Positions 17,258 through 35,217 of a stretch of DNA of 64,000 bases are shown piece after piece. The stretch is taken from positions 1,216,001 to 1,280,000 of the forward strand of contig CAWFFN010000009.1 in NCBI GenBank assembly GCA_963815115.1. Direction: 5' to 3'. Under the pieces are notes generated by a model. The model was given only the letters and a program-made list of their open reading frames with translations. It ran no database searches and was not told where the DNA came from. The DNA comes from an uncultured delta proteobacterium. Lineage in GTDB: Bacteria > Desulfobacterota > Binatia > DP-6. Position 1 is the stretch's first letter, and each line of letters opens with the position of its first letter. The translations under genes and the position numbers were made by a program.

Positions 17258-17776
17258 ATGGCGTCGCGGGCGTTCTCGCACATCGGGCTCTCCACCCTGG
17301 ACCTCGATCGGACGCGCGCGTTCTACGAGGAGGTCCTCGGTTTCACCGCCGTTCGCTGCGACACCCTGGAGTTCGAGGAAGGCGGCCGCATCCGCCACGT
17401 CTTCTTCGATGCCGGCGACGGACAGCTGATCGCGTTCATGGAGCCGCGCGGCATCCCGGGCATGCCGGTCGAGTACGACGCGGGGATCAACCGCGGCCTC
17501 GGCGTGCCCGATGCCTTCTATCATTTCGCCTTCGAGGTGGCATCGCTGGAAGCGCTCGAGGCGAAGCGCGCCCAGCTCATCGCCAGGGGCGTCAAGGTGA
17601 CGCCGATCGTGGACCACGAGTGGATGAAGTCGATCTACTTCAAGGATCCGAACGGCCTCATGCTGGAGTATGCCTGGCAGGCCCGCGAGCTCGGACCCGA
17701 CGATGCGGTGATGCAGGTCCGCGAGCGGCTGAAGCTGCGCGGCCGCTCCCCGGTGACCGACTTCCGCGACCGGTGA
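17258..17776 (+). CDS. VOC/glyoxalase family protein
   Basis: Motifs HIGL, FYEEVLG, HFAF, SIYFKDPNGLMLE. Confidence 0.9.
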   Translation: MASRAFSHIGLSTLDLDRTRAFYEEVLGFTAVRCDTLEFEEGGRIRHVFFDAGDGQLIAFMEPRGIPGMPVEYDAGINRGLGVPDAFYHFAFEVASLEALEAKRAQLIARGVKVTPIVDHEWMKSIYFKDPNGLMLEYAWQARELGPDDAVMQVRERLKLRGRSPVTDFRDR

Positions 17777-17841
17777 GGGCCGCCCGACCCGCCGTCACGG
17801 GTCGGGCTGGCGGGAAGGGGCGGCGCGGAGACACCCGGGTT

Positions 17842-17857
17842 GCGACATCGTGTCGCA
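17842..17857 (+). repeat. attL core GCGACATCGTGTCGCA (RegA-box-like palindrome)
   Basis: Identical to 31406-31421 and 37791-37806. Confidence 0.85.
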
Positions 17858-17956
17858 CGCCGGCGGTCACGCCCGACCACGCCCGACCACAAGGGCTTGA
17901 AATCTCAAGGGTCGCCGGATCGGCGAGTGACCCCTGAGAGCACCGAGTGTCCACAC

Positions 17957-17978
17957 GTTCATGGACAGTTCATGGACA
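17957..17978 (+). repeat. Integrase arm-type sites (GTTCATGGACA x2), left end
   Basis: Tandem 11-mer, repeated at 31325-31346, right after the integrase stop. Confidence 0.75.
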
Positions 17979-17987
17979 GTCGCGGGC

Positions 17988-19123
17988 TTAGGACGTGCGC
18001 CGCAGCGGCAGGACGGTGCGCGGGCCGGGCGCTGCGAGGGCGGCGTCGAGCTTGGCCTGCGCCACGGCCAAGTCGTCGGTGCTGGTGACGTTGTACCGCG
18101 TGAGCATGCTGCGCGTCTTCCAGCCGCCGAGCTTCATGACGACGTCCTCCGGCACGCCGGCCCGGATGAGCGTCCGCGCGCCGCTGCGCCGCAGGTCGTG
18201 GAGCACGAGCCCGGCGAGGCCGGCGGCGGTGGTGCCCTGGGCCCAGATCCGGTCGAAGCGGCTGTGCCCACCGGCCGGCCGTTCAGGTGAAAGACGAAGG
18301 GCGAGGCCGCACTCCGGGCCTGCCACCGCCGCTCGAGCAGGGCGAGCAGCCGGCCGGTCACCGGCAGGGTCAGGGGCCGCTTGTTCTTGAGCACCCGCCC
18401 CGGCAGCTGAAGCGTACCGCCGACGACGTGCCCGGCTTCAACCTCGAGGGCGCACATCGACCAGGTGAGCAGGCGCGCGGCGTTCCGCCGCAGCAGTGTC
18501 AGGTACCCACACTCGACCAGGTCGGCGATGACCTCGTCCCGCTGTCGGAGCTCGCGGACCAGGGCATCGAACTCCGGCGGGTCGACAAAGCCCTCGCGTT
18601 CGTTGCCTTCCTCGGACCGCATGGTGATGGCGGGCATGCTCGGGAGGAGCTGCTTCTTGACGGCGAGCTTGAACCCGCGGCGGAGCACGCTCAGCTCCCG
18701 ATTGACCGTCGCCGGCTGCGCGCCCGCCGTGATGCGCGCGTCGGCGTAGCAGTCGACGTCGTCGGCCGTGATGTGCAGTGCCAGCATGTCGCCGAAGGTC
18801 TCGGCGAGGTGGGCGACGGTCTTGCCCGGCTGCTCGGCCGTGCCGAGCCGCTTGGCGGTGCGATTGCCCCGACGGGCGGCGTCGGCCCGCGCCAGCTCGA
18901 TGAGCTCCTCGAACGTCAGCTTGCGCGCCGCGGGGTCGACGTACTGCGGCGTGTCCGCCGCCTTCACCTTCTGCCGGAGCACGGTCCGCGCCTTGCGCTC
19001 GTCACGCTCGCCGGTCGATTCCTCGACGAGCTTGCCCTCGTGGTGGTAGCGCGCCCACCAGATGCCGCCACGGAGCCGGAGCGAGCCGGTGCCGCGCTCG
19101 CGTTTCGCGTTCTCAACGCTCAT
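17988..19123 (-). CDS. int: Tyrosine recombinase/integrase (frameshift near 18268)
   Basis: N-terminal RERGTGSL..RGGIWWARY arm-binding domain; PATVNRELSVLRR; HDLRRS, GGWKT, TRYN in the second frame. One extra G in a G-run would join the frames. Confidence 0.9.
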
Positions 19124-19151
19124 GCCGCATCCCTCCTGTGACGTCGCTCGT

Positions 19152-19613
19152 TCATCGGCATGTGCTGTAGCAGCCGCCGAGATTCTCGCGGCAGGCGTTC
19201 CCGGCTTCGGCAGCACTGGCTCTGGCCGCGTCGCCGGCTGGGCCGACTGGGGCGGAGTACCAGGTGTGGTCGAGGCACTGATTGTACAGGGCCTGACACT
19301 CGCGGACACATTGCCCGCCGGCCGTAGTCTGCACGTTGGGCACGGGCGGCATGGGCGTGCGCCGCACCGGGGGCACGGCGGGCGTCGTGGCGCACGCCGT
19401 CGCGAGCATTGCGACGAAAAGTGCGAGCGCCAGATTCCGTGTGCCGCCCCGGAGGGTAGTCAGAGCAGCGATCCGCATCCACGCCGACACGCTCAGCTTG
19501 GCACGGTGGGCGGCCTGAGCGATCCGGCGCCGCTCGGCGGCGGTCAGGTACACGTACAGGGTCACGCGGTCGGGAATCTCCGGCGGTCGGCCTGGGCCTT
19601 TTCGTGCAGGCAT
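19152..19613 (-). CDS. RHH-like DNA-binding domain fused to TM/lipobox segment and Cys-rich domain
   Basis: VTLYVYLTAAERRRIAQAAHRAKLSVSAWMR, then LALALFVAMLATAC, then CxxxC motifs. Confidence 0.55.
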   Translation of the reverse strand: MPARKGPGRPPEIPDRVTLYVYLTAAERRRIAQAAHRAKLSVSAWMRIAALTTLRGGTRNLALALFVAMLATACATTPAVPPVRRTPMPPVPNVQTTAGGQCVRECQALYNQCLDHTWYSAPVGPAGDAARASAAEAGNACRENLGGCYSTCR

Positions 19614-19652
19614 GATTGGGACATCCTAATTCCTGCCTGCACGAATTGTCAA
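19601..19652 (-). promoter_or_regulatory. Sigma70-like promoter overlapped by a 12-bp inverted-repeat operator
   Basis: TTGACA (19652-19647), 18 bp, TAGGAT (19628-19623); TTCGTGCAGGCA (19601-19612) and TGCCTGCACGAA (19634-19645). Confidence 0.65.
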
Positions 19653-19981
19653 CCGACCCGCCGCCGGTCGAGCCAGCGCCGGAGCCCGGCCTCGTCGAAC
19701 ACCAGCCGCCGCCCGAGCCGTCGGGCGAACGGCAGGCGGCCGGCGCGCGCCTCCCGGTAGAGCCAGCCCCGCGACATCCCGGTGCGGCGCATGACCTCGG
19801 CGACGTCGAGAGCATCGGAAACGGGAGGGGCGCTCCCCCCGTTTGGTGCCGGCGCCGTCGCAGTCGTCCAGACCGCGAACTTGAGCGCCTCGAGCTCGCC
19901 GACGACCTGGGCGGCCTCGAGGGCGTCGACGCGGTCGGCCAGGGCGCGGAGCGCGGCGCGAAGATCGGCGCCGTCCGTCAT
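19649..19981 (-). CDS. AlpA/excisionase-like HTH protein
   Basis: LDVAEVMRRTGMSRGWLYREARAGRLPFARRLGRRLVFDEAGLRRWL. Confidence 0.8.
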   Translation of the reverse strand: MTDGADLRAALRALADRVDALEAAQVVGELEALKFAVWTTATAPAPNGGSAPPVSDALDVAEVMRRTGMSRGWLYREARAGRLPFARRLGRRLVFDEAGLRRWLDRRRVG

Positions 19982-20187
19982 GAGCCCTCCGTGGCCGGCT
20001 TGCGCTCGGCCTCGAGCCGGCGGTGATACTCCGCCGGCCAGCACCACCAGCAGCGCCCTGCTGCGGCGATCCCGGCCCTCGGGACGCGACGCCCGCAGTC
20101 GGTGCAGGTCGCCGGCGCCACGTCATCGCCGGCCGACGGCCACGGACCGCAATCCGACCAGGCCTGGTCAGGCGAGCGCACCCACAT
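19978..20187 (-). CDS. Small putative Zn-finger protein
   Basis: CTDC...CWWC; overlaps the flanking genes at both start and stop. Confidence 0.5.
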   Translation of the reverse strand: MWVRSPDQAWSDCGPWPSAGDDVAPATCTDCGRRVPRAGIAAAGRCWWCWPAEYHRRLEAERKPATEGS

Positions 20188-22522
20188 CAGGTGCCCTTGG
20201 GTCCGGAGATCGGGTGACAGGTAACGCACTCGTCGCCTTCCACGCCCCGGTGCCGCCACCGGCGGCCGCCGCACCGCACGCAAACCTGCCCGAGGCCGGT
20301 CTCGAAGATCGGGGCATCGTCGCCCGCCGGCTCGGGGTCGCAGCCGCTGCACTCGGTCGAGCCGCAGGTCGCGCAGGCGAGCCGCAGAGGACCGGCCCCG
20401 TTGCCATCCTTGCCGTCGCCTGCCCCCGAGGAAGTGCGGGAGAAGCGGCAAGAAACAGGGGTCTCGGGACTCCTTCTCTCCCAAGACTTTCCGGGAGGCG
20501 TCTCTTGCGGCCCTTGTGCCGCAACACCCGCGAGAGACTCCTCTTCGCAAAGCCCACTCGCAGCAGGGGTTTTCGCGTTTGACGTTTCTTGCCGCGGCCA
20601 CGCCTGATTCATCCCCACCACGAAGACGGGATGCCCACGGCGGGCAACATCCTTTACGAGGCGCCACCGGGCGCCGTTCTCGCGGTCGAGCACGGTGCGA
20701 GCGACCGCCCGGGAGACCGTGCCATCGCCATGCAGGAGGTCCACCGCCTCGGTCCGAGCCAGCGGCAGTTCGTCGGCCGCCGCCCGGCGGTCCACCTCAG
20801 CCACGAGGCTGGCGACGAGCTCGGCCTCGGTCGCTGCCCGCTCGGCCTCCGTCTGCGCCCGGGCAGCTTCCCCGGCCGCGTTCAGCTCCGCGGTCACTTC
20901 GCGCAACGACCAAGGCACCACGGCGAGCGTGATCTCGAGGGCGAAGGGCTCTGGTTCCTCGCCCACCCGGAACTTCGAGGGCACGAAGGCGAGCACGTAG
21001 CGATCTCGCCGGGTGCGGCGCGTCGCCCGCTCGGCCCACGCCTCCCGGCCCGCCGCCGGGAGCTCGGTCCACCAGTCCTTCGTCCCGCTCGGCTGAAAGC
21101 CGGTGGCGTCCCGCACCTCGTAGGCGATGTCGGCCCGGTCCTCGATGACCCCGCTCCCGCGCCCATGCGAGCCGCTCTTGATGGTGTTGCCGAGCACGAG
21201 GATCGACGGCCCATCGGCCCGGTGGACGATGTCGAGCAAGGGGGCGATGGCTTTCGAGGCTTGGCGGAATCCTGCTCGCCCACCCCCTCGGTGGACGCAT
21301 CGAGGGAGTCGACGATCACGAGTGCGTAGGTGCCGAACGGGAACGTGCGCCATGCCGCGGCATCGGTGAGCGGCGGCACCTCATCGCGGGTCAAGACCCG
21401 CAGGGTGGTGAGGTCCGCAGCCCCCCACGCACGGAGCCGTCGGCGGATTTCGCGCTTGGCGTTGTCGCGGTCGAGCAACAACACCGCGTGGCCTGCCCGG
21501 GCGAGCTGGATGGCGAAGGCATACGCGACGTGGGTCTTGCCGAGCCCTCGTGGCGAGAAAAAGTTCGTGAGCGACCCCGGGCTCAGCAGGCGAGGGACGA
21601 GCCAGTCGAGCGCGGGATCATCGCCGGCGAGAAACTCCGCCGCCGTGACGGCCTTGCTCCAGACCTCGCCCGAAGCGCCCCCACTCGTGAACGCGGCGCC
21701 AGCGTCGAACGTGTCGGGCCCGAACCACGTCTCGAGCTTCTCGAGCACGCCGGCCCCAAGCAGCTCGGCCAGGCGTGTGCCGCCGGTGGCGTGGCCTCCC
21801 TGGGCCAACCGCCGCGCCGTCGTCAGCACATCCTGGACGCGGGCACGTGTCTCCTCGTCCCCGGCGAGCCGTGCCGCCGTCCCGATGATCGTCTGCACGG
21901 CGTCCACCGCCACGGCCCGCCGCAGGAGGTAGCCCGCGGCAGCGAGGGCGATCTCGTGACGTACCCCGACCGTGCGCGGCCAGGCGCGGCCGAGGAGTGC
22001 GGTCACGGCGATGGAGCGGGCGGCATCCACGAGCGGGGCAGCCGGAACGATGGCTGGCGTCCGCGGGGCGCCGTCGAAGGCGATCGTCTCCCCGCTCGGA
22101 TGCACCGAGGGCGGCCACACCGTCTGCGAGCCGGTCGAGAGCAGCTCGACGAGCATCTCGGACTTCTTCGTGATCGGATCCGGTGGCGTGGTGTACTTCG
22201 TCGTCACCGGCGGCGGGCTGCACCGATAGAGCCAGTGCGACCGCGGTTTCCCGGGGCGTCCGAAGATGAGCGGCGTCGGCGGCAGGAACGTTGCCGCGAC
22301 GGCGACGGCTTCGGGCGCGTCCAGGTCGACGTCAACCAAACCGCCCGACGGCTCGCCGTTCAGGACGCCGAGATTGCTCTCGGGGTGGAAGTGCACCACG
22401 GACTCTTCCGTGTGGCGTTCCGCAGTCCAGTTGTTCCGGCCCGGATTCTTCGAGCCGCGGGGAATTTCAATCGGCGCGAAGCCGGCGCGCAGATACCGCC
22501 GGGCGGCCTCGATGCTGGTCAT
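20187..22522 (-). CDS. Bifunctional primase-polymerase fused to RepA-like AAA helicase (frameshift near 21258)
   Basis: NLGVLNGEPSGGLVDVDLD; QTVWPPSVHPSGE; WLVPRLL, Walker A SPRGLGKT, Walker B LVIVDSL; HGRGSGVIEDRAD in the second frame. Confidence 0.85.
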
Positions 22523-22530
22523 CGAGCGGG

Positions 22531-22755
22531 TTACCGTGCGGCGTCGGCCGTGAGCGCCGCGCCGAGGTGCAGTCGGCACTCGATCTCGTGCACGTCACGC
22601 AAGAGGCGCAGAGAGAAATCGAGTGCACAGGCAGCGTGCACGAGCAGCTCGGCGGTCCGGCCGACCCACAAGATGTGCGGCGCGTCGAGCGGCTCACCGC
22701 AGTAGATGCAGGCGGCATCCTTGACGCCGGCGCCCGGAATCGGGAACATCACCAT
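22531..22755 (-). CDS. Small Zn-binding hypothetical protein
   Basis: CIYC...HAAC; AAGGAG RBS. Confidence 0.55.
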   Translation of the reverse strand: MVMFPIPGAGVKDAACIYCGEPLDAPHILWVGRTAELLVHAACALDFSLRLLRDVHEIECRLHLGAALTADAAR

Positions 22756-22813
22756 GTCACCAACTCCTTCCGGCGCCCCGGGGGACCGAGACAGCCCCCG
22801 GGGCGCCTCCGAC

Positions 22814-23209
22814 CTAGAACGGGATATTTTCGTCTTCGGGTGACGGAGAGGCGGGTGCGGCGGGTGGTGCGCTCGCCGCGTTCCGCTCGAGCGGCACGAA
22901 GCGCACGCCGAGACTCGACTTGCCGTTCATCACGACCGGGACGCGGTGCACCGTGACGTTCGCACCAGTCCACGTCGCGCCGTCTCGACCCAAGACCTCG
23001 GCGAGCGCCGCGTAGTTGGTACGGTTCAGCAGAAACGGCTTGTCGACCCCGACGAACGTCAGCACGACCTTCGGCCGGAGCACCCCCGTCTGCGGGTCTT
23101 TGACTTGTTCCACCGCGGCAGACTGAATTTGAATCACGCGGCCTGACGGGACGGGGAACGTAGCGTTGTTGTGGTATCGGGTCGGGAACAATTCGTCATC
23201 GTTGAACAT
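22814..23209 (-). CDS. Phage-type ssDNA-binding-like protein
   Basis: Beta-rich body with LNRTN...W.G motif, Pro-rich linker, acidic EDENIPF tip like SSB. Confidence 0.65.
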   Translation of the reverse strand: MFNDDELFPTRYHNNATFPVPSGRVIQIQSAAVEQVKDPQTGVLRPKVVLTFVGVDKPFLLNRTNYAALAEVLGRDGATWTGANVTVHRVPVVMNGKSSLGVRFVPLERNAASAPPAAPASPSPEDENIPF

Positions 23210-23307
23210 TTCCAGTCACCTTTCTGCCAGCTCTCACCGCGCTGGCGGCGGGTACACGCTCATTCGAGAAGAGGAGTCCGGCGGCGGGCCGCGGCTCCAG
23301 CGCGCCG

Positions 23308-23553
23308 TCATCGCACCGGCTCCCGATCGTCGGCGCGTGCCCCGAGCTCGCGGCGGCGTGCCTCGTGTTCCTCGAGCGCTCGGACGCGATCGCGGACCGC
23401 ACAGCGCACCAGCTCCGCCATGGAGCAGTTCTCGAGGGCCGCCGCGCGATGCCAGCGCGCCACCTCCGGCGCGGGGATGCGGAAGGCAACGACCTTCTTC
23501 GCGCTTGTGAACTTCACGTTGCGCAGCGTAGTGCGCGACGTGGTGCCAATCAA
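23308..23553 (-). CDS. CopG/RHH-like small regulator
   Basis: VVAFRIP...WHRAAALENCSMAELVRCAV. Confidence 0.5.
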   Translation of the reverse strand: MIGTTSRTTLRNVKFTSAKKVVAFRIPAPEVARWHRAAALENCSMAELVRCAVRDRVRALEEHEARRRELGARADDREPVR

Positions 23554-24236
23554 CTAGCTTGCTGGCGGTTTAAATCGCTTCCGAGGCGGCTTAATTCGCG
23601 GTCGAGGCGGTTTAATTCGTCGTCGAGGCGGTTTAATTCCGGTCCGGGTTCGCCGCCGTCCGCTGTGGCGCCGGTACGCCTCTTCGACCCGCTCATGGAG
23701 CCGATCGATGTCCTGACGGATTTCGTCCGGAGTCCGATCAGGAGCCGCCGTCCCGAACGTCACGCGCCGGCCACACCGCCAGCACATCCGCCACCCGGAG
23801 AACATCAGCGCCAGGGTGGCAGCAACAACAACATCACGCCGATGGGGCGCGTTTTCCTCTGCAACCGGTGCACGTAGTCGACCGTGGCCACGACGCAGGC
23901 GGTAAAGAGCACCTCGTGGGGGCGACCGCGGCCGCGTGGGCCACGGGGGAGTTGGTCAAGGTGATAGAACCAGTGTGCCGCCCGACACAGCCCTTCGTCG
24001 GTGCGCGGGTTGCTACCCGTGCGCTCCTCAAACGCCTCGGAGAGCGAGCGGGCGGCGGTCCCGAGGAGGTCCTCCGCCCGACAGGGCGCGGTCTCGAAGA
24101 GGTCGCCCGTCCATGCGGACAGCACTGGCCCTGATGCGGGCGGCGGCACACCATCCGGGTCGCTGTCGGCCGCCACATCCTGGCGCAAGCCCGCGCCACA
24201 CAGTGCGCACTCTCTCCGCGGCCTCGTCCTCGCCAT
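23554..24236 (-). CDS. Hypothetical protein (two ORFs possibly joined by a frameshift near 23845)
   Basis: CALC in 23805-24251 and CWRC in 23554-23805; one extra base in a homopolymer would fuse them. Confidence 0.35.
23564..23640 (+). repeat. Four 21-bp-period direct repeats (GGCGGTTTAATTCG), iteron-like
   Basis: Copies start at 23564, 23585, 23606 and 23627. Confidence 0.75.
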
Positions 24237-24426
24237 CCCGCCGTCTCCCAAACCCGCCGCCTTGAACGCCGCGGGGCGAGGGGCGGACGGCGAGGTCCAC
24301 GCCCCTCTAGCGCCCGGCCGGGCGCCCCCGCGGTCGAGGGGATGCTACTCGCTCCCTTGGGGCTGTGCGAGGTCGAGGTCCACCGCCGCGCGCCGTCACG
24401 CTACGACGAGAGCGAGCGCCCTGCGG

Positions 24427-25128
24427 CTAGCCTATTGGATCGCGCACTACTTCTTTCCCCTGAGCGGCCACCATCCGCTCGAACTGTTCCAGCATCCCGA
24501 TATGGTCCATTGTTCGGAGCGGCGCCTGGGAAAAGTACACATTGTCGCCATACGGAACCCCGTCGCGACGGTCGATCCGGAAGAAGCTGGGCAGCGGAAG
24601 CTGACCTGGATCGGGAAGCATCTCTAGCGCTTTGAGTCGAAACTCGGGGAGCGCGACATCATTCGGAACACTCGGGTCGTACTGTCTAACCGCGCCCGAG
24701 AGCCAGAGGCCCATCTGCTTTGCGAGTGGTGACGCCGCCCACTCTAGCGGCACGTCGAGACGAACCTCCACGTGGCTCGTGTAGAGCCGCCGAGGGCTGA
24801 TCTCTTGAGCGATGCCGTCTGCCGCGCTTAGGAGGTCATCGATCACCGCGTCCGCGTCGTCCGTGGAGGCTGGCGTATCGGCCGTGACCGCCTGCGGATA
24901 GAGAGCCAGGCTGTTGATGACAATCGGTCGCCCCTCACGGACAAACTTGCCATGCCTGAACACGATGGGTGTCGAACTATCCAGAGGGGCAATGTCCTTG
25001 GCCTCGACCGGAACATGCACAAAGCCGTATCGCTCGCGAAGGGCGGCGATGATGTCTGGTATGTAGACGGGCTTGAGCGGCGCGATGAGCCTAAAAGCCT
25101 GTGCGAAAAGCACGGCTTGAAGTTTCAT
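24427..25128 (-). CDS. Hypothetical alpha/beta protein, third gene of the toxin-antitoxin cassette
   Basis: 233 aa; lower-GC codon usage; ATGA overlap with the antitoxin stop. Confidence 0.75.
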   Translation of the reverse strand: MKLQAVLFAQAFRLIAPLKPVYIPDIIAALRERYGFVHVPVEAKDIAPLDSSTPIVFRHGKFVREGRPIVINSLALYPQAVTADTPASTDDADAVIDDLLSAADGIAQEISPRRLYTSHVEVRLDVPLEWAASPLAKQMGLWLSGAVRQYDPSVPNDVALPEFRLKALEMLPDPGQLPLPSFFRIDRRDGVPYGDNVYFSQAPLRTMDHIGMLEQFERMVAAQGKEVVRDPIG

Positions 25129-25606
25129 CCTCCAATGGCCTCAAGCGCGGGAATGTGAAGGAACGGCTGCGCCGCCCGAACGGGCTGCGTGGTCTTCCTG
25201 CCTTGTAGAAGTTCCGGGATGCCCTTGTTGTCTGCGGGTGGTTGGGATGCCTGGAGGGGCTCCTTGTGCAGTGACTTCACGACGTCTTCGACGCTTGCCA
25301 GCGGAGTTTCAACTAGGTCGGTGACGAGCCGAGTCGGATCAACAGCCATCCCAACCATGAGATCGCTAATAGTATTGAGGGTGCAGTTACCGGGCGAACA
25401 AAGCCAGCGCGTGATCTGCGATGGCTCCCGACGCAGCCGGTTGGCGAGGCGAAGTTTATTTATTTCGCCCGCATCCTCCAGCCGAGAAACTCCCTGATGA
25501 CAACGTCATACAGGACGTTCTGGAGGTTCCGCCGAAAGAACCACACGGCCTTCTCAGGAACGACCTCATCATCGAGGGACAAGTCGGGCGTGAGATAGGT
25601 AGGCAT
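25125..25606 (-). CDS. XRE/HigA-like HTH antitoxin with long C-terminal tail (frameshift near 25488; not in the ORF track)
   Basis: Manual translation: MPTYLTPDLSLDDEVPEKAVWFFRRNLQNVLYDVVIREF / SRLEDAGEINKLRLANRLRREPSQITRWLCSPGNCTLNTISDLMVGM... Confidence 0.7.
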
Positions 25607-26114
25607 CAGGATGTACCCCTTCCGTTACGGGCTCCTCCGGCAAGAGGCGATCCCACTCCTCCCTGCATTCGAGACTCGCTGCGGCAAATGCCTCTCGATC
25701 TGGTAGGTCCCTGCGGTATCGCCATGCGAGCGCGACGAAAACATTTCTGAACGCGAAACGACCAAAGATACGTATAGTCGGCTGCCTTCTGGTGCTTCTG
25801 ATCTCCCACACTTCCTCATGGCCGGGATCGATCCGTGCTAGATAGCTCTGCTCGTCGTCGCCGTCGTCGTAGTAGCCATCCCTGCGGACCGCCAGCTCTC
25901 GCCCCGACACGAATTCGAGCAAATCGGCACCGACCTCCGTCCATCGCTTTTGATCTTTCGCGGATGCTGGGCCCTCCAACAAAAGGCGGTGGATAGCGAC
26001 GGAAACATACAGCTCGCGGCCCCTGCCTCGGCTCGCGCGCTTCGGGAACACTCGGTGCAGGCGCCGTTCGTCGCATAGCCGGTTGATCGCCTCTCGATTT
26101 GACATATAAGTCAA
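25569..26114 (-). CDS. RelE/HigB-like toxin
   Basis: LARIDPGHEEVWEIRSTRRQPTIRIFGRFAFRNVFVAL fits the RelE-fold WEIR..R.F pattern; upstream of an HTH gene. Confidence 0.65.
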   Translation of the reverse strand: MTYMSNREAINRLCDERRLHRVFPKRASRGRGRELYVSVAIHRLLLEGPASAKDQKRWTEVGADLLEFVSGRELAVRRDGYYDDGDDEQSYLARIDPGHEEVWEIRSTRRQPTIRIFGRFAFRNVFVALAWRYRRDLPDREAFAAASLECREEWDRLLPEEPVTEGVHPDAYLSHARLVPR

Positions 26115-26476
26115 CCGCCGGCAGAGTCAACTCAAACCTCTAGGTTTTCTCGGGTCGTCCGCCACGAGCCCATGGCCGCTCGAGATTGGCCAGGATGGCC
26201 TCGACGCCGGCCACCCCGCACCCACGGACAGGCACTTACCTAGTGCACCGGCCCCGATCGCGCTGGCGAGGCACCCCGCCGCCCCGAGCTGGTCGAGGAG
26301 TCACCCCCGGTTGGGAACTCGGGCACCCCGAAGAACTCGGCGACGACCGCCGCCCTTTCCGCTGCGTCCTCGGGCACCCAGCCGAGGACCGCAAGGATGA
26401 CGTCGTGGCAGGGGTCGGATCGGGCACGGTGAGCTTGTAGCCCAGTCTCAGCCGACGAGGCTACAGAGTCCTTGAG

Positions 26477-26737
26477 TCATCGCGGACCGACTTGGACGTT
26501 GAGGCTGCGACTATTGCCGTAGACTGCGGCCCGGCACCCTGCTGGGTCCCCGCCCTGACGGATGCAGCTATCAACGTCCGCAGCCTGGCGTTCGCGAGCG
26601 CGAGCTTCGGCCTCGCGACGTGCGCAGTAGGGGCTGTTGTGAATGCCTGCGATGCGAGAGCCCTCGTCGCCGCAAGGGACCATGCAGCCCACCAAGCCGA
26701 CTACTGTGACGAGGCACGCGCTCGGCAACAGGCGCAC
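26477..26737 (-). CDS. Small lipoprotein
   Basis: Lipobox LVGC after a hydrophobic stretch. Confidence 0.5.
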   Translation of the reverse strand: MRLLPSACLVTVVGLVGCMVPCGDEGSRIAGIHNSPYCARREAEARARERQAADVDSCIRQGGDPAGCRAAVYGNSRSLNVQVGPR

Positions 26738-26865
26738 GCTTGAGGGCTACCAATGTTCCCCTAGTCCTTCAAGGTGGGCGCCGAGGCGAGCCCGCTCCCA
26801 ACCCCGACGGCACCGCGTCCCGTCACCCTCCCAGGACGCGCGGGCGCGGGGCCGCCGGGTTCACG

Positions 26866-27087
26866 TCACCGCCGCGGCCGCCCACCGCCCGCGAGGCGAG
26901 CGGCCTCCCGCAGCAAGACCTGCCGCACCCAGGACTCGCGCGAGACGTGACAGCCCGCCGGAGCCCGTGCCTGGGCGCGCTGCACGGCCTCGTCAACCGC
27001 GCCAAGGAGCCCGTCGACGTCGCGCAGGAGGAAACTCCGGACGTGCCGCCGGGCCGGTGGCGGGACGGTGAAGTCGTCGTCGGTCAC
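26866..27087 (-). CDS. Small RHH-like protein
   Basis: SFLLRDVD...VSRESWVRQVLL; GTGA overlap with the upstream gene. Confidence 0.45.
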   Translation of the reverse strand: MTDDDFTVPPPARRHVRSFLLRDVDGLLGAVDEAVQRAQARAPAGCHVSRESWVRQVLLREAARLAGGGRPRR

Positions 27088-27419
27088 GGCGCCTCGTCCT
27101 GGTCGTGCTCGTCGGCATCATCCTCCCAGAACACGTCGGCGCCCTCGGCCCGCGCGCGGCGCTTGACCTCGTTCCAGACGCATTCCGACAGCGTCGTCTC
27201 CGGGTCCAACCAGGGTCGGAATTCCCGGGCCTGCTCGTGCCGCTGGAGCGCGCCGCAGGTGCTGCCGCGCCAGTCCTCGATCACGCGCAGCGCATCCCAG
27301 GTCCCATTCCCCTCACGTTCGATCCGGCCCGCTTGCTCGGCCCGCACGATCGCAGGCTGGCTCACGCCCAGGATCCGGGCTAAGGCGACGTTCGTCTGAA
27401 CGATCGCGTACCACGGCAT
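27084..27419 (-). CDS. Terminase small subunit (Nu1)/Rpp-like winged-HTH protein
   Basis: ALARILGVSQPAIVRAEQAGRIEREGNGTWD...VIEDW resembles a Nu1-type DNA-binding domain; directly downstream of the cos-like site. Confidence 0.6.
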   Translation of the reverse strand: MPWYAIVQTNVALARILGVSQPAIVRAEQAGRIEREGNGTWDALRVIEDWRGSTCGALQRHEQAREFRPWLDPETTLSECVWNEVKRRARAEGADVFWEDDADEHDQDEAP

Positions 27420-27543
27420 GTGATTCCCTCCGGGGGTTACTCAGCACCACGTGGGTTTCCCCGCCTCCTCGGGCGGGAACCGTCGGCGATCCGCACGGTT
27501 GCTGCGCCGACGTGCTGGCCGTGTGACCCCCTTTTTGGGGGTC

Positions 27544-27605
27544 AAATAGCGGGGCACGCTGCCCCCCGCTGACCCGAGTAGCTTTCCGAGACGGCGGAAG
27601 GACCC
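27544..27605 (-). other. Lambda-like cos site (cosQ-cosN region)
   Basis: Minus strand GGGTCCT (cosQ; 27605-27599), with CGCTATTT starting 54 bp later, as in lambda cos. Confidence 0.6.
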
Positions 27606-27626
27606 GAACCGTTCGCAGCGAGAATG

Positions 27627-28205
27627 CTAGCGCTCATCGCTGCGGTGGGGCCGTTGCACGCGGAGCGCCCGGCCGAGGAGGACGCTGCCGTCGAGGCATG
27701 CGATGACGGCGTCGGCATCCTCGGGGTCCTTGAGCCAGACGTGGGCCGAGGACCTGCCGTTGCCCGAGTGCATGACGACCTTCCAGACCGGAGCGACGGG
27801 CGCGATGTGGTCCTCCAGGTCGACCTCGCATGCGTTGTTCGGGACGTTCCCGATGTACACATGCGCGCCCTGGCGGCCGGCTGGCGGGGCGGGGCGCGGA
27901 GGAGCCTGGCCGGGTGGCGGACGCTTGGAGACGCGCACCGTCCGGCCGAGGAGCGGGCGCGCGGGGAGCGCGGCCAGGGCGCGCTCGGCCTCATCGACCG
28001 TGCGGAAGAGCACCACGGCGGCCTCGACGTCGCCGCGGTCGTTCCGCAACGGGGTGACCTCGAGGGGCGTGATGCCGCTGCCCTCCTCGACGTAGCGACG
28101 GAGCTGGCCCTGCGTCACCTGGCCCGGCAGGCCGCCGAGAAACAGCTCGCACGCGCGCCGGGCCAACGGGGAGAAGCGGGGCTCGACCACCGTGGACCCA
28201 GGCAT
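27627..28205 (-). CDS. Tandem RRM RNA-binding protein
   Basis: RNP2 motifs LFLGGL and VYIGNV; each domain ends LLGR.(V/L)RV. Confidence 0.8.
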   Translation of the reverse strand: MPGSTVVEPRFSPLARRACELFLGGLPGQVTQGQLRRYVEEGSGITPLEVTPLRNDRGDVEAAVVLFRTVDEAERALAALPARPLLGRTVRVSKRPPPGQAPPRPAPPAGRQGAHVYIGNVPNNACEVDLEDHIAPVAPVWKVVMHSGNGRSSAHVWLKDPEDADAVIACLDGSVLLGRALRVQRPHRSDER

Positions 28206-28206
28206 G

Positions 28207-28747
28207 TCAGCTCGCGAGCACTTCGGGACTGAACAGGATCTCAGGAGAGGCGTCGCCGCGGCGATCGAGCGTGATGCCCTGCTGCGCAGCGCTGCAGATC
28301 AACTTCTCCTCGTCGAGCTCGAGGGTGCGCAGGCGGTCGCGCAGGGCGGCAAGGCCTGCGGGGCGCTCGGCCGCCGGGATCGCCGCCCGGACCAACTCGG
28401 GACCGGCCGCGTAGATCGCCCGCAGGCGCGCCCGCAGCACGGCAAGGAGCGGCTCACGGTGAACCGTTGCGATGAAGGCCGCCGCGCGTTGCGCCTCATA
28501 CTGTGGATCGGGCACGAGCAGCTCGACCGTCCCAAGGTCCCCGCCGCCCGGGCGGATGAACGCGGCGAGCACGGGCGTCGGGTCGTAGAGTTTGGCGAGC
28601 CGGTCGACGCTCGCGACCAGGGCGTCCTCGGCCTCAGGACAAGGCAGGGGGGCGCCGGCAATGGTCTGCAGCTCGGCCGTGGTCGCGGCAATCTGCGCGC
28701 GCAGGGCCGTGACGGTGGCGGTGATGTCGTCACTCGGCTTCTTCATG
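28207..28747 (-). CDS. Hypothetical helical satellite protein
   Basis: GAGGAG RBS before MKKPSDDIT; coiled-coil-like. Confidence 0.6.
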
Positions 28748-28756
28748 CGCTCCTCC

Positions 28757-29211
28757 TCACCCAGCCAGGCCGAGGTACTGCCGGCAGCGCGCGACGAGCT
28801 GGCCGAGCCGCTGCGCGCGTTCGTATGCCGAGTCACGCGCGCCGCTGACGCGGGCGCACTCGGCCTGCGTCTCCTCGAGCTCGCGCGCCACGTCGTCGAG
28901 GTTGTCGCCGATGGCGGGCTGCCACGTCCGCGCCGTCGGGCCACGGCTGGGATCGCGCACCCATTGCCCGGGATGCAAGGTCGGGTGCGTCACGCGCAGC
29001 TCCTCGAGGCGGCGCGCCAGGCGCTGCTCCTCGTCCCGGAGGGCGCGCGCCTGCTCGGTGAGGATGCGGGCGCGCTCCCGGGCGACCTCGGCGTCCGTCT
29101 CCATCGCTTCCAGCTTCTCCGCGCCGCGGCCGACAGCGCCTGGCGGGCGCGCCGGGCGCCGCCCGGGACGGTGAGCGGGCCCGGCGTCAGCGCGCCGGCC
29201 TCGGTCCTCAT
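28757..29211 (-). CDS. Coiled-coil hypothetical protein (frameshift near 29120)
   Basis: MRTEAG...ALSAAAR continues as EKLEAMETDAEVARERA if one G is added. Confidence 0.5.
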
Positions 29212-29465
29212 GGCGTCGCCCGCCGGGCGGCCTGCGCGGCCATGACAGCGGCGTGTCGAGCCGCATAGATGCTCTCGGCGTCGAGCGTCGCCGGCTCAGG
29301 TTCCCGCGGTGCCGGCGCCGGGGCCAGCGCGGTGGCCGCGGCGCGCTGATAGCGGCCCGCGAGCCCCTGCAACGTCGCCACCGTGTTCCCGTGCTGCGCG
29401 ATCAGGGCCGCATGCTCGGCCAGGATGCCGCACGCGGCCCGGACCTCCTCCGTCGTGGTGCTCAT
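29208..29465 (-). CDS. Hypothetical protein
   Basis: AAAGGAG RBS; ATGA overlap with the next gene. Confidence 0.55.
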   Translation of the reverse strand: MSTTTEEVRAACGILAEHAALIAQHGNTVATLQGLAGRYQRAAATALAPAPAPREPEPATLDAESIYAARHAAVMAAQAARRATP

Positions 29466-29598
29466 GGGTCAGTCTCCTTTCGAGCGGCAGCGGCCTCCAC
29501 GATGCGTGGCGAACCCGAGGCCATGCGTTCGGGTGCGGGTCGGCCAGCGGGGAAGGATGGGCCCCGCCAGTCGATCGCCACGCATCGTGCAGGCCGCG

Positions 29599-29880
29599 TC
29601 AGCGGCATCGCGGCAGCTCCTGCACGGCGTGCCGCTTCAGGTAGGCGGTTCGCAGGGCCTGCTTCGAGACCACCGGCACGCTGGTGGCCGCGCCCGCCGC
29701 ACACCACGCGGTCTCCGACACGCCGGCGTGGTCGAGCACCACGAGGAGCGCCTCGGGGTCGACGGGGCCGCGCGCGAGCACGCCGCGCACGAAGGCCCGG
29801 ACCAACTCGGCGCGGTCAAGCACCACGCCGCGGCTGGCGCGACAGAGGGCGGCAAGGTCCTGGGCGCGGGCGGGACTCAT
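29599..29880 (-). CDS. Hypothetical protein
   Basis: MSPARAQDLAALC start overlaps the stop of the upstream HTH gene. Confidence 0.4.
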   Translation of the reverse strand: MSPARAQDLAALCRASRGVVLDRAELVRAFVRGVLARGPVDPEALLVVLDHAGVSETAWCAAGAATSVPVVSKQALRTAYLKRHAVQELPRCR

Positions 29881-30083
29881 GCCGCCCCCCGCGGGCGCCG
29901 GGTGCGCGCGAGCCACGCCTCGACATCGCTCAATCGGCAGCGGCTCCACCCGCCAGGATCGAAGATCGGCAACTCCCCGCGCTCCGCGGCCTGAAAGAGG
30001 AGGTGGCGGCCGATGCCGAACAGCCGGGCGGCCTGCCGCACCGTCACGAGGCGCTCGACGTCGACCGCTGGGACGTCCATCAC
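29877..30083 (-). CDS. Excisionase-like (HTH_17) DNA-binding protein
   Basis: LVTVRQAARLFGIGRHLLFQAAERGELP...LSDVEAWL; TTGACA at 30114-30109 upstream. Confidence 0.75.
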   Translation of the reverse strand: MMDVPAVDVERLVTVRQAARLFGIGRHLLFQAAERGELPIFDPGGWSRCRLSDVEAWLARTRRPRGAA

Positions 30084-30263
30084 ACAGTAGGACTAATACA
30101 GCCGCAAATGTCAAGAAGCGCAACGAATGATCAGGACGCCGCGCCCTGGCGCCGGCCAAGGTACTGGGACTCGACGACGACCACCGGAACTGGAATCCTG
30201 TGCCGTGGACGCCAGTCGCGCATCCGCCACGGCTCTGATACGCGGCGTCAACGCTCGGCAGGC

Positions 30264-30731
30264 ATGAGTGTCGAAGTCAGAGCTGTTGCTCCACGGCGTC
30301 GCCTACGACGCGCATTCGAGCGCGTCCTGGCCATCTTCCTGCCGTGGGAAGTGTGCCTCCGGCGGGAGCTGCGCTTCACCGATCTCCCGATCTACGATGA
30401 CGATCCCCGTCACGATGAGAGAGATCTCGAGGAGGAAGAGTACTTCGACAGGGAGCGGATCTGGGAGACCGGCAAATGGTGCCTGCGGGCGTACAAGTAC
30501 CATGCTCGTCTCCCCCCCTACCCCCCAGTAAACGAGGAGAATGAGTTCTGGGAACGGCCGTACTACCACCGCAGCAGACTCGTTCTCACTGAGGCGGGGA
30601 AGGCGGAGATACACCGTCAGATTCGGGAAGATCGCACCGTCTGGTTTCGTGTCGTCACCGCGCTAGTTCTTGCCGTTACGGGATTGCTCGGGACGCTCAT
30701 CGGGTTGTTGTCGTTCCTGAAGGCAAGATGA
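30264..30731 (+). CDS. Cargo protein with C-terminal transmembrane helix
   Basis: LVLTEAGKAEI wHTH-like motif, then VVTALVLAVTGLLGTLIGLLSFL. Confidence 0.65.
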   Translation: MSVEVRAVAPRRRLRRAFERVLAIFLPWEVCLRRELRFTDLPIYDDDPRHDERDLEEEEYFDRERIWETGKWCLRAYKYHARLPPYPPVNEENEFWERPYYHRSRLVLTEAGKAEIHRQIREDRTVWFRVVTALVLAVTGLLGTLIGLLSFLKAR

Positions 30732-30851
30732 ATCACCTGACAGCGAACGAGCGGGGCATGGCGGGGTAACGTAGTCGATTTCGGTTCCGGTAAGGGGCTT
30801 TGGTAGAATGGCCTTGAGGCGGACTTCGACCGGCTCACTAAGGAGAAACGC

Positions 30852-31193
30852 ATGAGCGACGCGAGCTACCCTTGGGAGAAGATGTATCAAGCCATGCGGA
30901 TGCTGCTGACGCCGAGTCAGGATGCCCGAAAGATGGCCATCCATGCACTCGGCGAGTTCAGCGCCGCGTTCGGTGCTCCCAACAAGGTTCCCGAATGGGC
31001 GGCGAGCGAAGTAAGCAAGGTGCGCCATATCGCGCCGTTCCACGAGATCAAGGATGCCGGCTCAGAGGGCACCATCGCCGCGTGGGTCAACCAGGCCAGC
31101 TTGGAAGAGCTGGACGAGCTCTATGACGCGCTGTTGTCTCTCTTCATGCGGACCGTCGAGAGGCGCGAGCGGCAGTACCCACGGGCGGACTAG
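30852..31193 (+). CDS. Hypothetical cargo protein
   Basis: AAGGAG RBS; helical 113-aa ORF. Confidence 0.65.
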   Translation: MSDASYPWEKMYQAMRMLLTPSQDARKMAIHALGEFSAAFGAPNKVPEWAASEVSKVRHIAPFHEIKDAGSEGTIAAWVNQASLEELDELYDALLSLFMRTVERRERQYPRAD

Positions 31194-31324
31194 GGACCTC
31201 GTTCGCCATCGCCGGAGCCTCCATCCGGGGTCCCGTGCTTCGCAGCCCGCTGTGCGGCGCCTCGTTGCGACGGAGGGTCAGCGGTGCCCGGCCGGTCTCG
31301 AGCGGCTGCCGGGGGGTGTCACGC

Positions 31325-31346
31325 GGTCATGGACAGTTCATGGACA
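31325..31346 (+). repeat. Integrase arm-type sites, right end
   Basis: GGTCATGGACA-GTTCATGGACA. Confidence 0.75.
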
Positions 31347-31405
31347 ATCCGCCCGGCCGCCGCCGAAAACCCTAGCATCTACGGGGCGAATTGCCCGGCG
31401 TGCCC

Positions 31406-31421
31406 GCGACATCGTGTCGCA
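31406..31421 (+). promoter_or_regulatory. attR core and putative RegA box upstream of the copper operon
   Basis: GCGAC-N5-GTCGC; GCTAAT -10-like hexamer at 31443-31448; GTG start at 31457. Confidence 0.75.
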
Positions 31422-31456
31422 TTCCGGTGGCCCGCGCGAGGCGCTAATCGCAAGCC

Positions 31457-32413
31457 GTGCACCGCTCCCGCTGGCAGTCGATCGCCCAGTGCTTCGGCGC
31501 GCTGGGGATCCTCCTGGCCGCCTCGGCCACGCCCGCGGGCGCGCACGGCATCGTCGGACAGCGGTTCTTCCCGGCCACGCTGTCGATCGACGATCCCTTC
31601 GTGGCGGACGAGCTCTCCCTCCCCACCGCCGGGTTCACCAGGCAGCGGCGCACGGCGGAGGCGCCGTCCACGCTCGAGACCGAGTTCAGCGCGGAGCTGT
31701 CCAAGCGCCTCAGCACCAACCTGGGTCTGTCGCTCGGCGCCGCCGTGATCATGGACGCGCCCCGCGGCGGACCCACCATCGCCGGCTTCGACAACATGGA
31801 GATCGGGCTCAAGTACGTCTTTCTCAAGCGCGCCGAGAACGAGCTGCTCCTCTCCGGTGGCGTCGACATCGACGTCGGGGGAACCGGCCAGGAGCGCGTG
31901 GGCGCCGAGCCCTTCTCCACCTTCACGCCGTCGCTGTTCTTCGGCAAGGGCATGGGCGATCTGCCCGACGACCTGCGCTATTTGAAGCCGTTCGCGTTGA
32001 CCGGCGCGCTCGGACTGGCCCTGCCGGTGCGCACGGATCCGCGGGTCTTCCAGTGGGGCTTCACACTCCAGTACAGCCTGCAGTATCTCCAGTCGTTCGT
32101 GCAGGACGTCGGCTTGCCAGCGCCGTTCGACCGGATGATCCCGATCGTCGAGTTTCCCATCCAGACGACCGTCGAGGGACGGAGCCGGACGGCCGGCAGC
32201 ATCAACCCGGGGGTGATCTGGTTCGGCCGGTACATCCAGCTCGGATTCGAGGCCGTGATCCCGGTCAACGGCAACACGCTCGATCCCGAGGAGCAGGGTC
32301 GCCAGAGCGGCGTCGGCTTTCTCGGCCAGATTCACTTCTACCTGGACGACATCTGGCCGGATGTGTTCACCTGGACCCCGTTCGACGGCGTGCTGGGGCC
32401 CACCCAGCCATGA
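31457..32413 (+). CDS. Putative outer-membrane beta-barrel associated with copCD
   Basis: Signal peptide; mature N-terminus HGIVGQRFFPATLSIDDPFVADEL; amphipathic strands. Confidence 0.75.
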   Translation: MHRSRWQSIAQCFGALGILLAASATPAGAHGIVGQRFFPATLSIDDPFVADELSLPTAGFTRQRRTAEAPSTLETEFSAELSKRLSTNLGLSLGAAVIMDAPRGGPTIAGFDNMEIGLKYVFLKRAENELLLSGGVDIDVGGTGQERVGAEPFSTFTPSLFFGKGMGDLPDDLRYLKPFALTGALGLALPVRTDPRVFQWGFTLQYSLQYLQSFVQDVGLPAPFDRMIPIVEFPIQTTVEGRSRTAGSINPGVIWFGRYIQLGFEAVIPVNGNTLDPEEQGRQSGVGFLGQIHFYLDDIWPDVFTWTPFDGVLGPTQP

Positions 32414-32787
32414 TGTCGCGCCGTCGGACAGCCGCTCCGGCCGTCATGCTGCTGGCGGCGCTGTTCCTGGGAGCGCCGGCACCGGCATGGTGCCATGCGT
32501 TTCCCGATCATTCGGAGCCGCGCGTCGGCCATACCCTGGACGAGCCGCCGGCGTCGGTCCGCATCTGGTTCGACGGCGACCTCGAGCCCGTCTTCAGCAC
32601 GATGCGCGTCGAGAGCGCAGCGCAGCAGCGCGTCGATCGGGGCGACGCGCAGGTCGACCCGCACGACGCCACCCTGCTCGAGGTGAGCCTGCCGCCGCTG
32701 TCGTCGGGCACCTACCAGGTCTTCTGGAGCGCGGTGGCACGCGACGGCCACCGCACGGAGGGCAGCTTCCCCTTCCACATCAAGTGA
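32410..32787 (+). CDS. copC: Copper resistance protein CopC
   Basis: Mature N-terminal HAFPDHSEP; C-terminal YQVFWSAVARDGHRTEGSFPF. Confidence 0.92.
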   Translation: MMSRRRTAAPAVMLLAALFLGAPAPAWCHAFPDHSEPRVGHTLDEPPASVRIWFDGDLEPVFSTMRVESAAQQRVDRGDAQVDPHDATLLEVSLPPLSSGTYQVFWSAVARDGHRTEGSFPFHIK

Positions 32788-32794
32788 CGCCGAT

Positions 32795-33733: not shown

Positions 33734-33745
33734 GAGGGCTGGCGC

Positions 33746-35128: not shown

Positions 35129-35217
35129 AACTCGATGAACGGTGCGGACGTCGTGCCGCGAGCGGCGAAGCCGCCGCGGCGGACGTTTCGGAGCATGACC
35201 CCGAGAGTCTCGGGTCG
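35085..35217 (+). repeat. REP-like two-hairpin repeat, copy 3, plus a degenerate extra hairpin
   Basis: Aligns with 12524-12637; lies between convergent genes. Confidence 0.8.

Follow-up and report, generated by a model that had tools for sequence, protein, structure and literature searches.

The locus studied here raises the question whether a small island without recognised structural genes is a phage satellite, an integrative element of another kind, or no mobile element at all. The window, that is the whole stretch of 64,000 nucleotides that was analysed, belongs to a 6.9-Mb genome of Candidatus Binatia (G000, whose contigs are cited as C5, C7, C8, C9 and C12), and the element in question comprises window positions 17842-31421 (13.6 kb). 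The original prediction had read it as a satellite resembling the phage-inducible chromosomal islands (PICIs) that parasitises a cos-type phage. From this prediction, the site-specific integrative element with readable attachment (att) sites can be kept, while the satellite status was not borne out: three of the five PICI core components are present, and neither a cos site nor a helper was found. In our view, this is likely a true site-specific integrative element that belongs to a very rare family in Candidatus Binatia, and the copy in the window is likely to be decaying. If this reading holds, it is among the first mobile elements described for this uncultured soil phylum. The lineage is as unexpected as had been claimed, since a literature search on Binatota prophages brought up no described satellite from Candidatus Binatia. 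To our knowledge, no phage of the Binatota is known.

Related genomes are designated G001-G004 and fetched loci carry L-numbers (L017 corresponds to G000 C7:1088001-1108000). Open reading frames (ORFs) were compared with Pfam and PHROGs (n=39), and a further 69 element-overlapping ORFs of at least 60 aa with PHROGs alone. The chance level for repeats was taken from 100 dinucleotide-preserving shuffles of the window.

Bounding repeats and integration site

The element is bounded by an exact 16-bp core, GCGACATCGTGTCGCA, at 17842-17857 (attL, plus strand) and 31406-31421 (attR, plus strand), just as predicted. The attR core lies about 35 bp upstream of a gene for a 318-aa protein that starts at 31457. 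Two features were absent from the earlier account. First, a third exact core is present at 37791-37806 (plus strand), 6.4 kb downstream of the element. Second, the core is palindromic: together with the preceding T, the attL core forms the perfect 7-3-7 palindrome TGCGACA-TCG-TGTCGCA, of which G000 holds only two, at cores 1 and 3. Throughout the 6.9 Mb, these three are the only exact cores, accompanied by three copies with one mismatch. If up to two mismatches are allowed, the window contains five matches, compared to 0.13 expected by chance, and none of the 100 shuffles reached five. The third core is unoccupied and native. On one side of it lies a spermidine-synthase-like gene and on the other a histidine kinase gene, the two being transcribed divergently from this promoter region; the kinase gene forms a pair with a response-regulator gene (39211-39768).

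Inside both ends we found tandem arm-type repeats of the form G(T/G)TCATGGACA. The integrase-proximal arm carries GTTCATGGACA twice (17957-17978, plus strand), and the distal arm carries GGTCATGGACA followed by GTTCATGGACA (31325-31346, plus strand). They share the same orientation, and their distance inward from the core is 99 bp on the left and 59 bp on the right, in agreement with the roughly 100 and 60 bp given before. At up to one mismatch the window holds six matches to the arm motif against 1.06 expected, a number reached by none of the 100 shuffles, and matched tandem arm repeats adjoin cores 1 and 2 only. The 9-bp inverted repeat that had been proposed around the core also reads as claimed: its halves, CCGGCGTGC (31395-31403) and GCACGCCGG (17855-17863), would come together upon circularisation. 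Just inside attL, Tandem Repeats Finder detected 2.3 tandem copies of CACGCCCGAC (17868-17890, plus strand), possibly an accessory-protein site. The integrase gene is found 130 bp from attL and direct repeats stand at both ends, as expected for an integrative element, and the pattern of the repeats suggests arm-type integrase sites in both arms.

Relatives of the host carry the palindrome but lack the 13.6 kb that separate core 1 from core 2. In both G001 and G003, the intergenic region orthologous to that of core 3 contains an identical site; in G002, a copy with three mismatches was found. Upstream of the homologue of the 318-aa gene, G003 and G004 each possess an uninterrupted palindrome with one mismatch and no 13.6-kb island; it lies about 35-60 bp before the start of the homologue, with a TAAT/TATCT box in between. 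The empty site that had been suggested as a check was looked for and found in these two genomes, upstream of the same gene, with a left flank that is not syntenic. The attB flanks reconstructed for G000 (gggtt-core-ttccgg) are those of one G001 site, and no element protein was found in six relatives' loci around palindrome sites. Because this native palindrome is also found in promoter regions of the relatives, the element appears to have inserted into a host motif that resembles an operator, apparently one of a small local regulon. Two more exact palindromes exist in G001 (L018 12446 and 16369). One of them lies between divergent genes and adjoins a YceI-like gene. The other adjoins a Phd/YefM-type gene, and the identical Pfam scores of the two such genes in this genome (L018:16423-16728 and 9605-9910) suggest a duplicated segment.

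The history of the insertion site involves a second piece of DNA. In G001 and G003, the glyoxalase gene (ending at window position 17776) is directly followed by lgt (window 34391). There, G000 is longer by about 16.6 kb, which comprise the element and a 2.9-kb module encoding the 318-aa, a CopD-family and a 150-aa protein. This module (window 31457-34198, with the gene of the secreted 318-aa protein at 31457-32413) is single-copy in G000, and its locus differs in each of G000, G001, G003 and G004 (L019, L021, L047). It is preceded by the core palindrome in G000, G003 and G004 and by a degenerate 11-of-16 version in G001, and in G003 it interrupts stretches that are contiguous at G000 C5:1016755. 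The position of the module thus varies independently of the element. In the simplest history, which comprises two events, the module would have relocated first and the element would then have integrated into the module's palindrome. The homologue of the 318-aa gene in G001 (L019 6448-7331) aligns in two frames, which may reflect a real frameshift or an assembly error. We also considered the 16.6 kb as one composite insertion ending at about 34361 but rejected this, since no core is present at the right junction and the module changes place by itself in other genomes.

Taken as an integration event, entry would have occurred through recombination between attP and the native 7-3-7 palindrome in the promoter of the 318-aa/CopD operon. 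This would have duplicated the 16-bp core and left the empty twin 6.4 kb downstream, and the tandem 11-bp repeats inside both ends would serve as arm-type sites of the integrase. A promoter palindrome as target, with an empty second copy so close by, would make a tidy case for integrases adopting host operators.

Frameshifted genes and the C7 paralogue

The gene set listed in the original prediction stands as far as the integrase, two HTH_17/AlpA-type proteins (HTH, helix-turn-helix) and the Prim-Pol/AAA_25 replicase are concerned. What went unnoticed is that both large genes are frameshifted. The tyrosine integrase gene (17988-19309, minus strand; matches to Phage_integrase, Int_N and phrog_1) is broken at about 18254-18265 and split over two overlapping ORFs. 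The N-terminal ORF (18134-19309) matches phrog_1 positions 117-372, and the C-terminal ORF (17988-18326) matches Phage_integrase positions 108-166 of 172. In the alignment, the break falls just before the HxxR motif, and the piece with HxxR and the Tyr region lies in the other frame. Homologues in two other Binatia genomes (L057 and L059) consist of a single continuous frame. No matching core was found near related integrases in four loci or near three G000 paralogues; the closest was a site with three mismatches about 5 kb from the L057 integrase gene.

The second broken gene encodes the replicase (20187-22579, minus strand; Prim-Pol E 1.2e-10, AAA_25 E 9.9e-12), with the frameshift at about 21255-21265. 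When the intact 802-aa replicase of a paralogous element on contig C7 was compared against the window by tblastn, its residues 11-440 aligned in frame -1 with 80% identity, and its residues 424-743 in frame -3 with 62%. The alignment shows a 1-nt gap at this position, inside the ATPase domain and outside any homopolymer. As a control for the frequency of such breaks, a 400-kb portion of G003 was used: of its 133 long ORFs, 120 were compared with G000, orthologues being defined by at least 65% identity. This left 58 orthologues with 28,137 aligned residues (about 84 kb), among which a single gene fell into two frames. The element, with its two breaks in 13.6 kb, is therefore well above this background. 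With both the integrase and the replicase frameshifted, the copy is unlikely to be active as an element of any type. It is most likely a decaying relic, which probably can neither excise nor replicate on its own. The split gene of the control set (G000 C9:1459818-1461478 versus its G003 orthologue) may itself represent a real frameshift or an assembly error. A frameshift scan based on GC content at third codon positions (GC3) was dropped after about 1000 false calls on one contig.

In its build, the element combines a tyrosine integrase and an adjacent HTH_17/AlpA-type protein, its own Prim-Pol/AAA_25 replicase, and an operon of small proteins headed by a second HTH_17 protein. Of 401 genomes sampled from the class, at least 21 possess homologues of the replicase (E ≤ 1e-10). 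For 20 loci around such homologues in other Binatia, the overlap with the window was limited to the replicase, to integrases and to three small HTH matches. The replicase further matches six phage records (covering at most 32% of the query) and one plasmid record, and a search of the single replicase protein against genome contigs gave no relative. Four tandem 21-bp repeats (GGCGGYTTAAWTY...) are located at 23564-23647 within an 83-aa ORF. The motif occurs genome-wide in this array only, and it might constitute iterons or an origin, a candidate assignment that we put forward weakly.

The C7 paralogue is 15.1 kb in size (L017:3590-18744) and sits inside a tRNA-Arg(ACG) gene, the 3' part of which is repeated at the far end of the element; tandem CCGCTTGCA repeats are located near both ends. 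It encodes an intact integrase unrelated to that of the window, an HTH_3 protein and the intact 802-aa replicase, and it carries an insertion sequence (DDE_Tnp_1_4). Homologues of the window's HTH_17, 93-aa, coiled-coil, 178-aa, winged-HTH and lipoprotein-like genes are present as well. A 460-bp stretch (window 26447-26907, minus strand), which includes an 86-aa ORF that resembles a lipoprotein by eye but matches no family, is 94% identical between both elements, compared to 70-81% elsewhere. Thus, the window element resembles this tRNA-targeting genomic island in its replicase, small-protein operon, end repeats and arm-like tandem repeats. In contrast, the integrases are unrelated and the target is a promoter palindrome instead of a tRNA 3' end, and while integrase and replicase are intact in the C7 copy, both are frameshifted in the window copy.

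Three conclusions follow from the paralogue. First, the same layout with a different integrase, core and arm motif supports the interpretation of the window repeats as att and arm sites. Second, a shared backbone with unrelated integrases points to the exchange of integration modules. One replicase/operon backbone with two unrelated integrase/att modules in a single genome would represent a clean case of such an exchange. Third, as the C7 element is equally small and lacks structural genes too, small size appears to be the normal state of the family and not the result of deletion. The family is rare beyond G000: queries with the replicase, the winged-HTH alignment and the 178-aa protein found no relative in IMG/VR, and only two metagenome contigs matched, with lengths of 1.2-1.3 kb.

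The tRNA-Arg(ACG) 3' part exists in four copies (L017 2443-3647 and 18687-18762), two of them remnants beyond the far end of the element, which indicates repeated tandem integrations. A YefM/YoeB pair is encoded just outside the C7 element (L017:1886-2397). Another Prim-Pol homologue with an integrase nearby is found at G000 C7:920036-926036, and there are at least six more tyrosine-integrase matches (C5:89091, 994007, 1202775 and 1226754; C8:375396 and 391877). G000 hence appears to be rich in integrative elements.

Several observations weigh against our interpretation of a decaying integrative element. The frameshifts could be assembly errors, as the reads behind the assembly were not seen. 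The sole public sequencing run that contains this DNA, a soil metagenome (0.07 of the sampled words), consists of short contigs that span neither frameshift site nor the att junctions, and the few joints reported extend over about 20 letters on either side; no RNA data set with this DNA is listed. An excision product was not observed. The evidence for an empty site is one-sided, since the left flank with the glyoxalase gene continues into lgt in G001 and G003; because of this adjacency and the differing loci of the module, a second rearrangement has to be assumed. The putative origin sits within an ORF and is missing from the paralogue, and the operator role of the palindrome is likewise putative.

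Satellite, mobilisable element or remnant

In the account given in PMC10085698, PICIs are built from five core components: an integrase, a regulator, a primase-replicase, capsid morphogenesis and the small terminase subunit (TerS). Sets with three components (Type C) are set aside there as ambiguous, since such a set could stem from a defective PICI, from another element or from chance aggregation, and a P4-like element scores as a three-component PICI in the same source. The window element possesses three: the integrase, an AlpA-type regulation module (HTH_17/AlpA at 19649-20047 and the second HTH_17 at 29877-30083) and the primase-replicase, the first and the third being frameshifted. No match for the capsid-morphogenesis component was obtained among 108 ORFs (PHROGs) or 39 ORFs (Pfam). 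Tail, holin, portal and connector genes, which PICIs lack as well, had no match among the 108 ORFs at E ≤ 0.001, nor had capsid and terminase-large families (39 of the ORFs were also searched with Pfam). The second batch of 69 ORFs gave no PHROG match at this threshold. The absence of structural genes noted earlier is therefore upheld, also among the hypothetical ORFs, where such genes were sought. We conclude that the trio of integrase, AlpA-type protein and primase alone is no proof of a satellite, and that reading frames need to be checked before an island is called active.

The TerS-like gene of the earlier account is a weak candidate. Its product is a winged-HTH protein of 111 aa with an acidic tail (27084-27419, minus strand), which the C7 element encodes too. 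The single PHROG match of this protein, to the TerS family phrog_57 (E 1.4e-4), is confined to the HTH part, where residues 12-66 align to profile positions 17-75 of 199. For its AlphaFold2 (AF2) model, with a pLDDT of 78, Foldseek found nothing at E ≤ 0.001. The top two VIA matches were the PICI protein RppC (6hn7_B; Z 4.5, root-mean-square deviation (rmsd) 3.5, 55 aligned residues) and the DNA-binding domain of lambda gpNu1 (1j9i; Z 4.3, rmsd 3.8, 58 aligned residues). However, MerR-type regulators (Z 4.1-3.8) and an excisionase (Z 3.6) follow within one Z unit, so that the likeness lies within the noise of such folds. RppC consists of an N-terminal winged HTH and C-terminal helices according to the part of its description considered here (PMC6739421), and the same description likens the RppC domain to MerR and to lambda TerS. 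The hint toward a TerS/Rpp function of the modelled protein is thus real but weak, and it is not independent of the PHROG match. The family comprises seven clusters among 5.8e9 (5.8 billion) entries, none of them named, and within the class it was detected in two of 401 genomes, namely G000 with three copies and one further genome with a weak match. The third G000 copy is solitary (C9:406042-406338; L129:10036-10377; 57-71% identity). It is surrounded by genes for a cation ATPase, cytochrome c and ApbE, and neither an integrase nor a replicase is encoded nearby. No cos site, as it had been proposed, is recognisable from the sequence without a helper.

A helper was not found either. No relative turned up in the virome queries mentioned above, and G000 gave no match to Phage_capsid, Phage_portal, TerL_ATPase, Terminase_6N or GpA_ATPase. 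The element itself has no Pfam or PHROG match to a relaxase or to a transfer protein of the type IV secretion system (T4SS) or FtsK type. As the family has no own transfer genes, its spread must rely on a helper, for which a phage would be the leading single candidate. We regard a phage-dependent, satellite lifestyle of the family as a serious possibility that falls short of being probable.

Comparison with known satellites points in both directions. The element resembles Gram-negative PICIs such as EcCICFT073, as far as these are portrayed in Fillol-Salom et al. (2019; PMC6739421) and de Sousa et al. (2023; PMC10085698), in its backbone of integrase, AlpA-type HTH and primase-helicase, a size of about 10-15 kb, genes on one strand, the lack of tail, holin, portal and capsid genes, and a small winged-HTH protein with a weakly RppC/gpNu1-like fold. 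It differs from the PICIs described there by the missing capsid-morphogenesis component, a TerS/Rpp homology that is not significant, and the lack of a known cos site and helper. Its Prim-Pol+AAA_25 replicase, the promoter-palindrome target and the frameshifts set it further apart. Moreover, it resides in Binatia, while more than 99.9% of the PICIs counted in PMC10085698 belong to Proteobacteria or Firmicutes. Capsid-less satellites with such a backbone do exist: virion-encapsidated integrative mobile elements (VEIMEs) are defined by concatemers in virus particles, according to the portion of Eppley et al. (2022; PMC9618062) drawn on here. The window element shares with them, in the same account, an environmental origin, a tyrosine integrase, an AlpA/excisionase protein, a primase/helicase, the lack of capsid genes and a majority of genes without homologues. 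However, VEIMEs are described from marine plankton and were seen in particles, while our element originates from soil and is known from a genome sequence. P4-like satellites likewise combine an integrase, an AlpA-type regulator and a primase-helicase, but the replicase families differ, and none of the 108 ORFs had a P4-type or capsid-related PHROG match. For the psu-delta-sid operon and the alpha primase, there was no PHROG or Pfam match in the scanned ORFs, the profiles of Psu, Delta, Sid and epsilon not having been searched by name.

One might speculate that the two elements of G000 belong to a phage-satellite family, the first of the phylum Binatota, with the winged-HTH protein as an Rpp-like redirector, the small-protein operon as a helper-interference module, and swapped integrase/att modules. 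We consider this rather doubtful. If true, a host operator palindrome would function as attB, and the duplicated operator could rewire a copper/envelope regulon.

An active PICI-like cos satellite seems to us an improbable reading of the window copy. Under this scenario, the frameshifts would be assembly errors, and the element would excise and replicate upon infection by a helper, the terminase of which the 111-aa protein would redirect to the cos site of the island. While the backbone, the size of about 13.6 kb, the one-strand layout and the absence of structural genes fit the PICI description, at least as it is outlined in PMC10085698, and while the phrog_57 match, the two top VIA matches and the architecture of RppC can be cited in its favor, the same protein is tied with MerR regulators and an excisionase, belongs to unnamed clusters and has a copy standing alone among chromosomal genes. 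No capsid-morphogenesis gene and no cos site could be identified, the two frameshifts exceed the background rate, and G000 yielded neither the capsid and portal families nor the three large-terminase families searched.

We give little credence to the idea that the element is an integrative mobilisable element or an integrated plasmid unrelated to phages. It would excise and replicate by its PrimPol-helicase, and a conjugative element would mobilise it at an oriT, a NikA-like ribbon-helix-helix (RHH) protein serving as relaxosome accessory; alternatively, transfer could proceed through vesicles or transformation. The RHH candidate is the N-terminus of an ORF at 19152-19613 (minus strand), which resembles NikA/MobA (PF21983, 26.5 bits; NF041264, E 0.0032). 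However, this score lies below the Pfam cut-off of 27 bits, and the ORF looks fused to a Cys-rich, lipoprotein-like C-terminal part, for which a chromosomal paralogue is found at C5:68863-69084. In addition, the replicase type is also present on a plasmid (one record), and no protein of the shared operon matches a phage family; of 68 members of the 178-aa family, one has a PHROG match (E 6.4e-4). Conversely, the element lacks a relaxase, and G000 gave no match to Relaxase PF03432 or VirB4 PF03135, the only two transfer families searched.

A decayed prophage that lost its structural genes would explain the integrase, the excisionase-type HTH protein, the two frameshifts and a weak Rz-like spanin match (E 0.0055), the only match of the lysis category. 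We deem it very improbable, as none of the 108 ORFs had a structural, lysis or tail match at E ≤ 0.001 and the intact C7 paralogue has the same small size without such genes. Finally, it is hardly conceivable that no insertion took place and that the three 16-bp copies are operators of one regulon with ordinary chromosomal genes in between: the palindrome is indeed native, recurs in promoter regions of relatives and, at 37791, clearly does not mark an element end, but the 13.6 kb are absent from relatives and contain an integrase, a replicase and low-GC cargo, the matched arm repeats adjoin only the two bounding cores, and the paralogue is bounded by tRNA repeats.

Further genes and non-coding features

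All convincing genes of the element lie on the minus strand except for 30852-31193, as the predicted single-strand layout implies. Next to the integrase gene, 19649-20047 (minus strand) encodes the first HTH_17/AlpA-type protein (HTH_17 E 3.5e-11, Phage_AlpA E 8.8e-6), which also matches phrog_66 and phrog_1840 (excisionase) and is a candidate excisionase or regulator. Three small genes (22531-23553, minus strand) encode proteins of 74 aa, 131 aa (phrog_21613) and 81 aa; the last is RHH-like by eye but without a family match, and for the 131-aa protein one homologue cluster besides itself was found.

The G+C content of the window is about 70%, but drops to 0.585-0.60 at 24500-26000 and to 0.615-0.64 at 30000-31500. 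The first of these regions coincides with variable cargo (24427-26114, minus strand; G+C 0.585-0.62) encoding proteins of 233, 77 and 181 aa that the C7 element does not have. A variable slot is found at 27627-28205 (minus strand), where the window encodes a 192-aa protein with two RRM_1 domains (E 4.5e-14, two stretches) and the C7 element an unrelated 152-aa ORF. RRM_1 is a eukaryote-type domain, found here in a bacterial mobile element. This protein is also the nearest candidate for the SSB-like gene that had been predicted; no SSB was found. Between the RRM and the winged-HTH gene, two hairpins (27505-27555, minus strand) are conserved in the C7 element, one formed by GCGGGG...CCCCGC followed by TATTT, the other by GACCCCC-AAAAA-GGGGGTC. 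They look like a terminator, and this pair upstream of the winged-HTH gene is the only conserved non-coding feature that we found. An Rfam scan of 17500-31800 gave no match at E ≤ 0.1.

The small-protein operon shared with the C7 element spans 28207-30083 (minus strand). It is headed by the second HTH_17 gene (29877-30083), followed by genes for a 93-aa protein (29599-29880), an 85-aa protein present in the window only (29208-29465), a coiled-coil protein of about 150 aa (28757-29266) and a 178-aa protein (28207-28743). Upstream of the operon, a low-GC stretch poor in ORFs (30100-30850) precedes the single plus-strand gene (30852-31193), which has a good ribosome-binding site and encodes a 113-aa protein without Pfam or PHROG function.

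No function was obtained for the hypothetical proteins from NCBIfam (30 searched) or PADLOC (27 searched), the only notable result being a mad1-type HTH at 19649-20047, and a sequence search of four element proteins against the PDB gave no match below E 0.16. In the ESM Atlas, the 233-aa and 178-aa proteins fell into unnamed clusters only. The 178-aa protein is predicted to be all-helical (AF2 model, pLDDT 97.1). Its model had no Foldseek match at E ≤ 0.001 in PDB and BFVD, and the best VIA-wide match (Z 8.3 over 72 residues) was a generic helical hairpin. The family has 233 representatives at E ≤ 0.001, some with an extra N-terminal domain of about 150 aa. No Pfam family is common to more than one of 68 members, and the family profile found nothing in the 20 Binatia loci with replicase homologues. 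Such confidently modelled proteins of no known family are among the most interesting aspects of the element.

Outside the element, a repeat of about 115 bp is located downstream of lgt (window 35084-35200). It occurs in more than 100 copies with 72-92% identity on contigs C5, C7, C8, C9 and C12 and looks like a family of repetitive extragenic palindromes (REP) or miniature inverted-repeat transposable elements (MITE).

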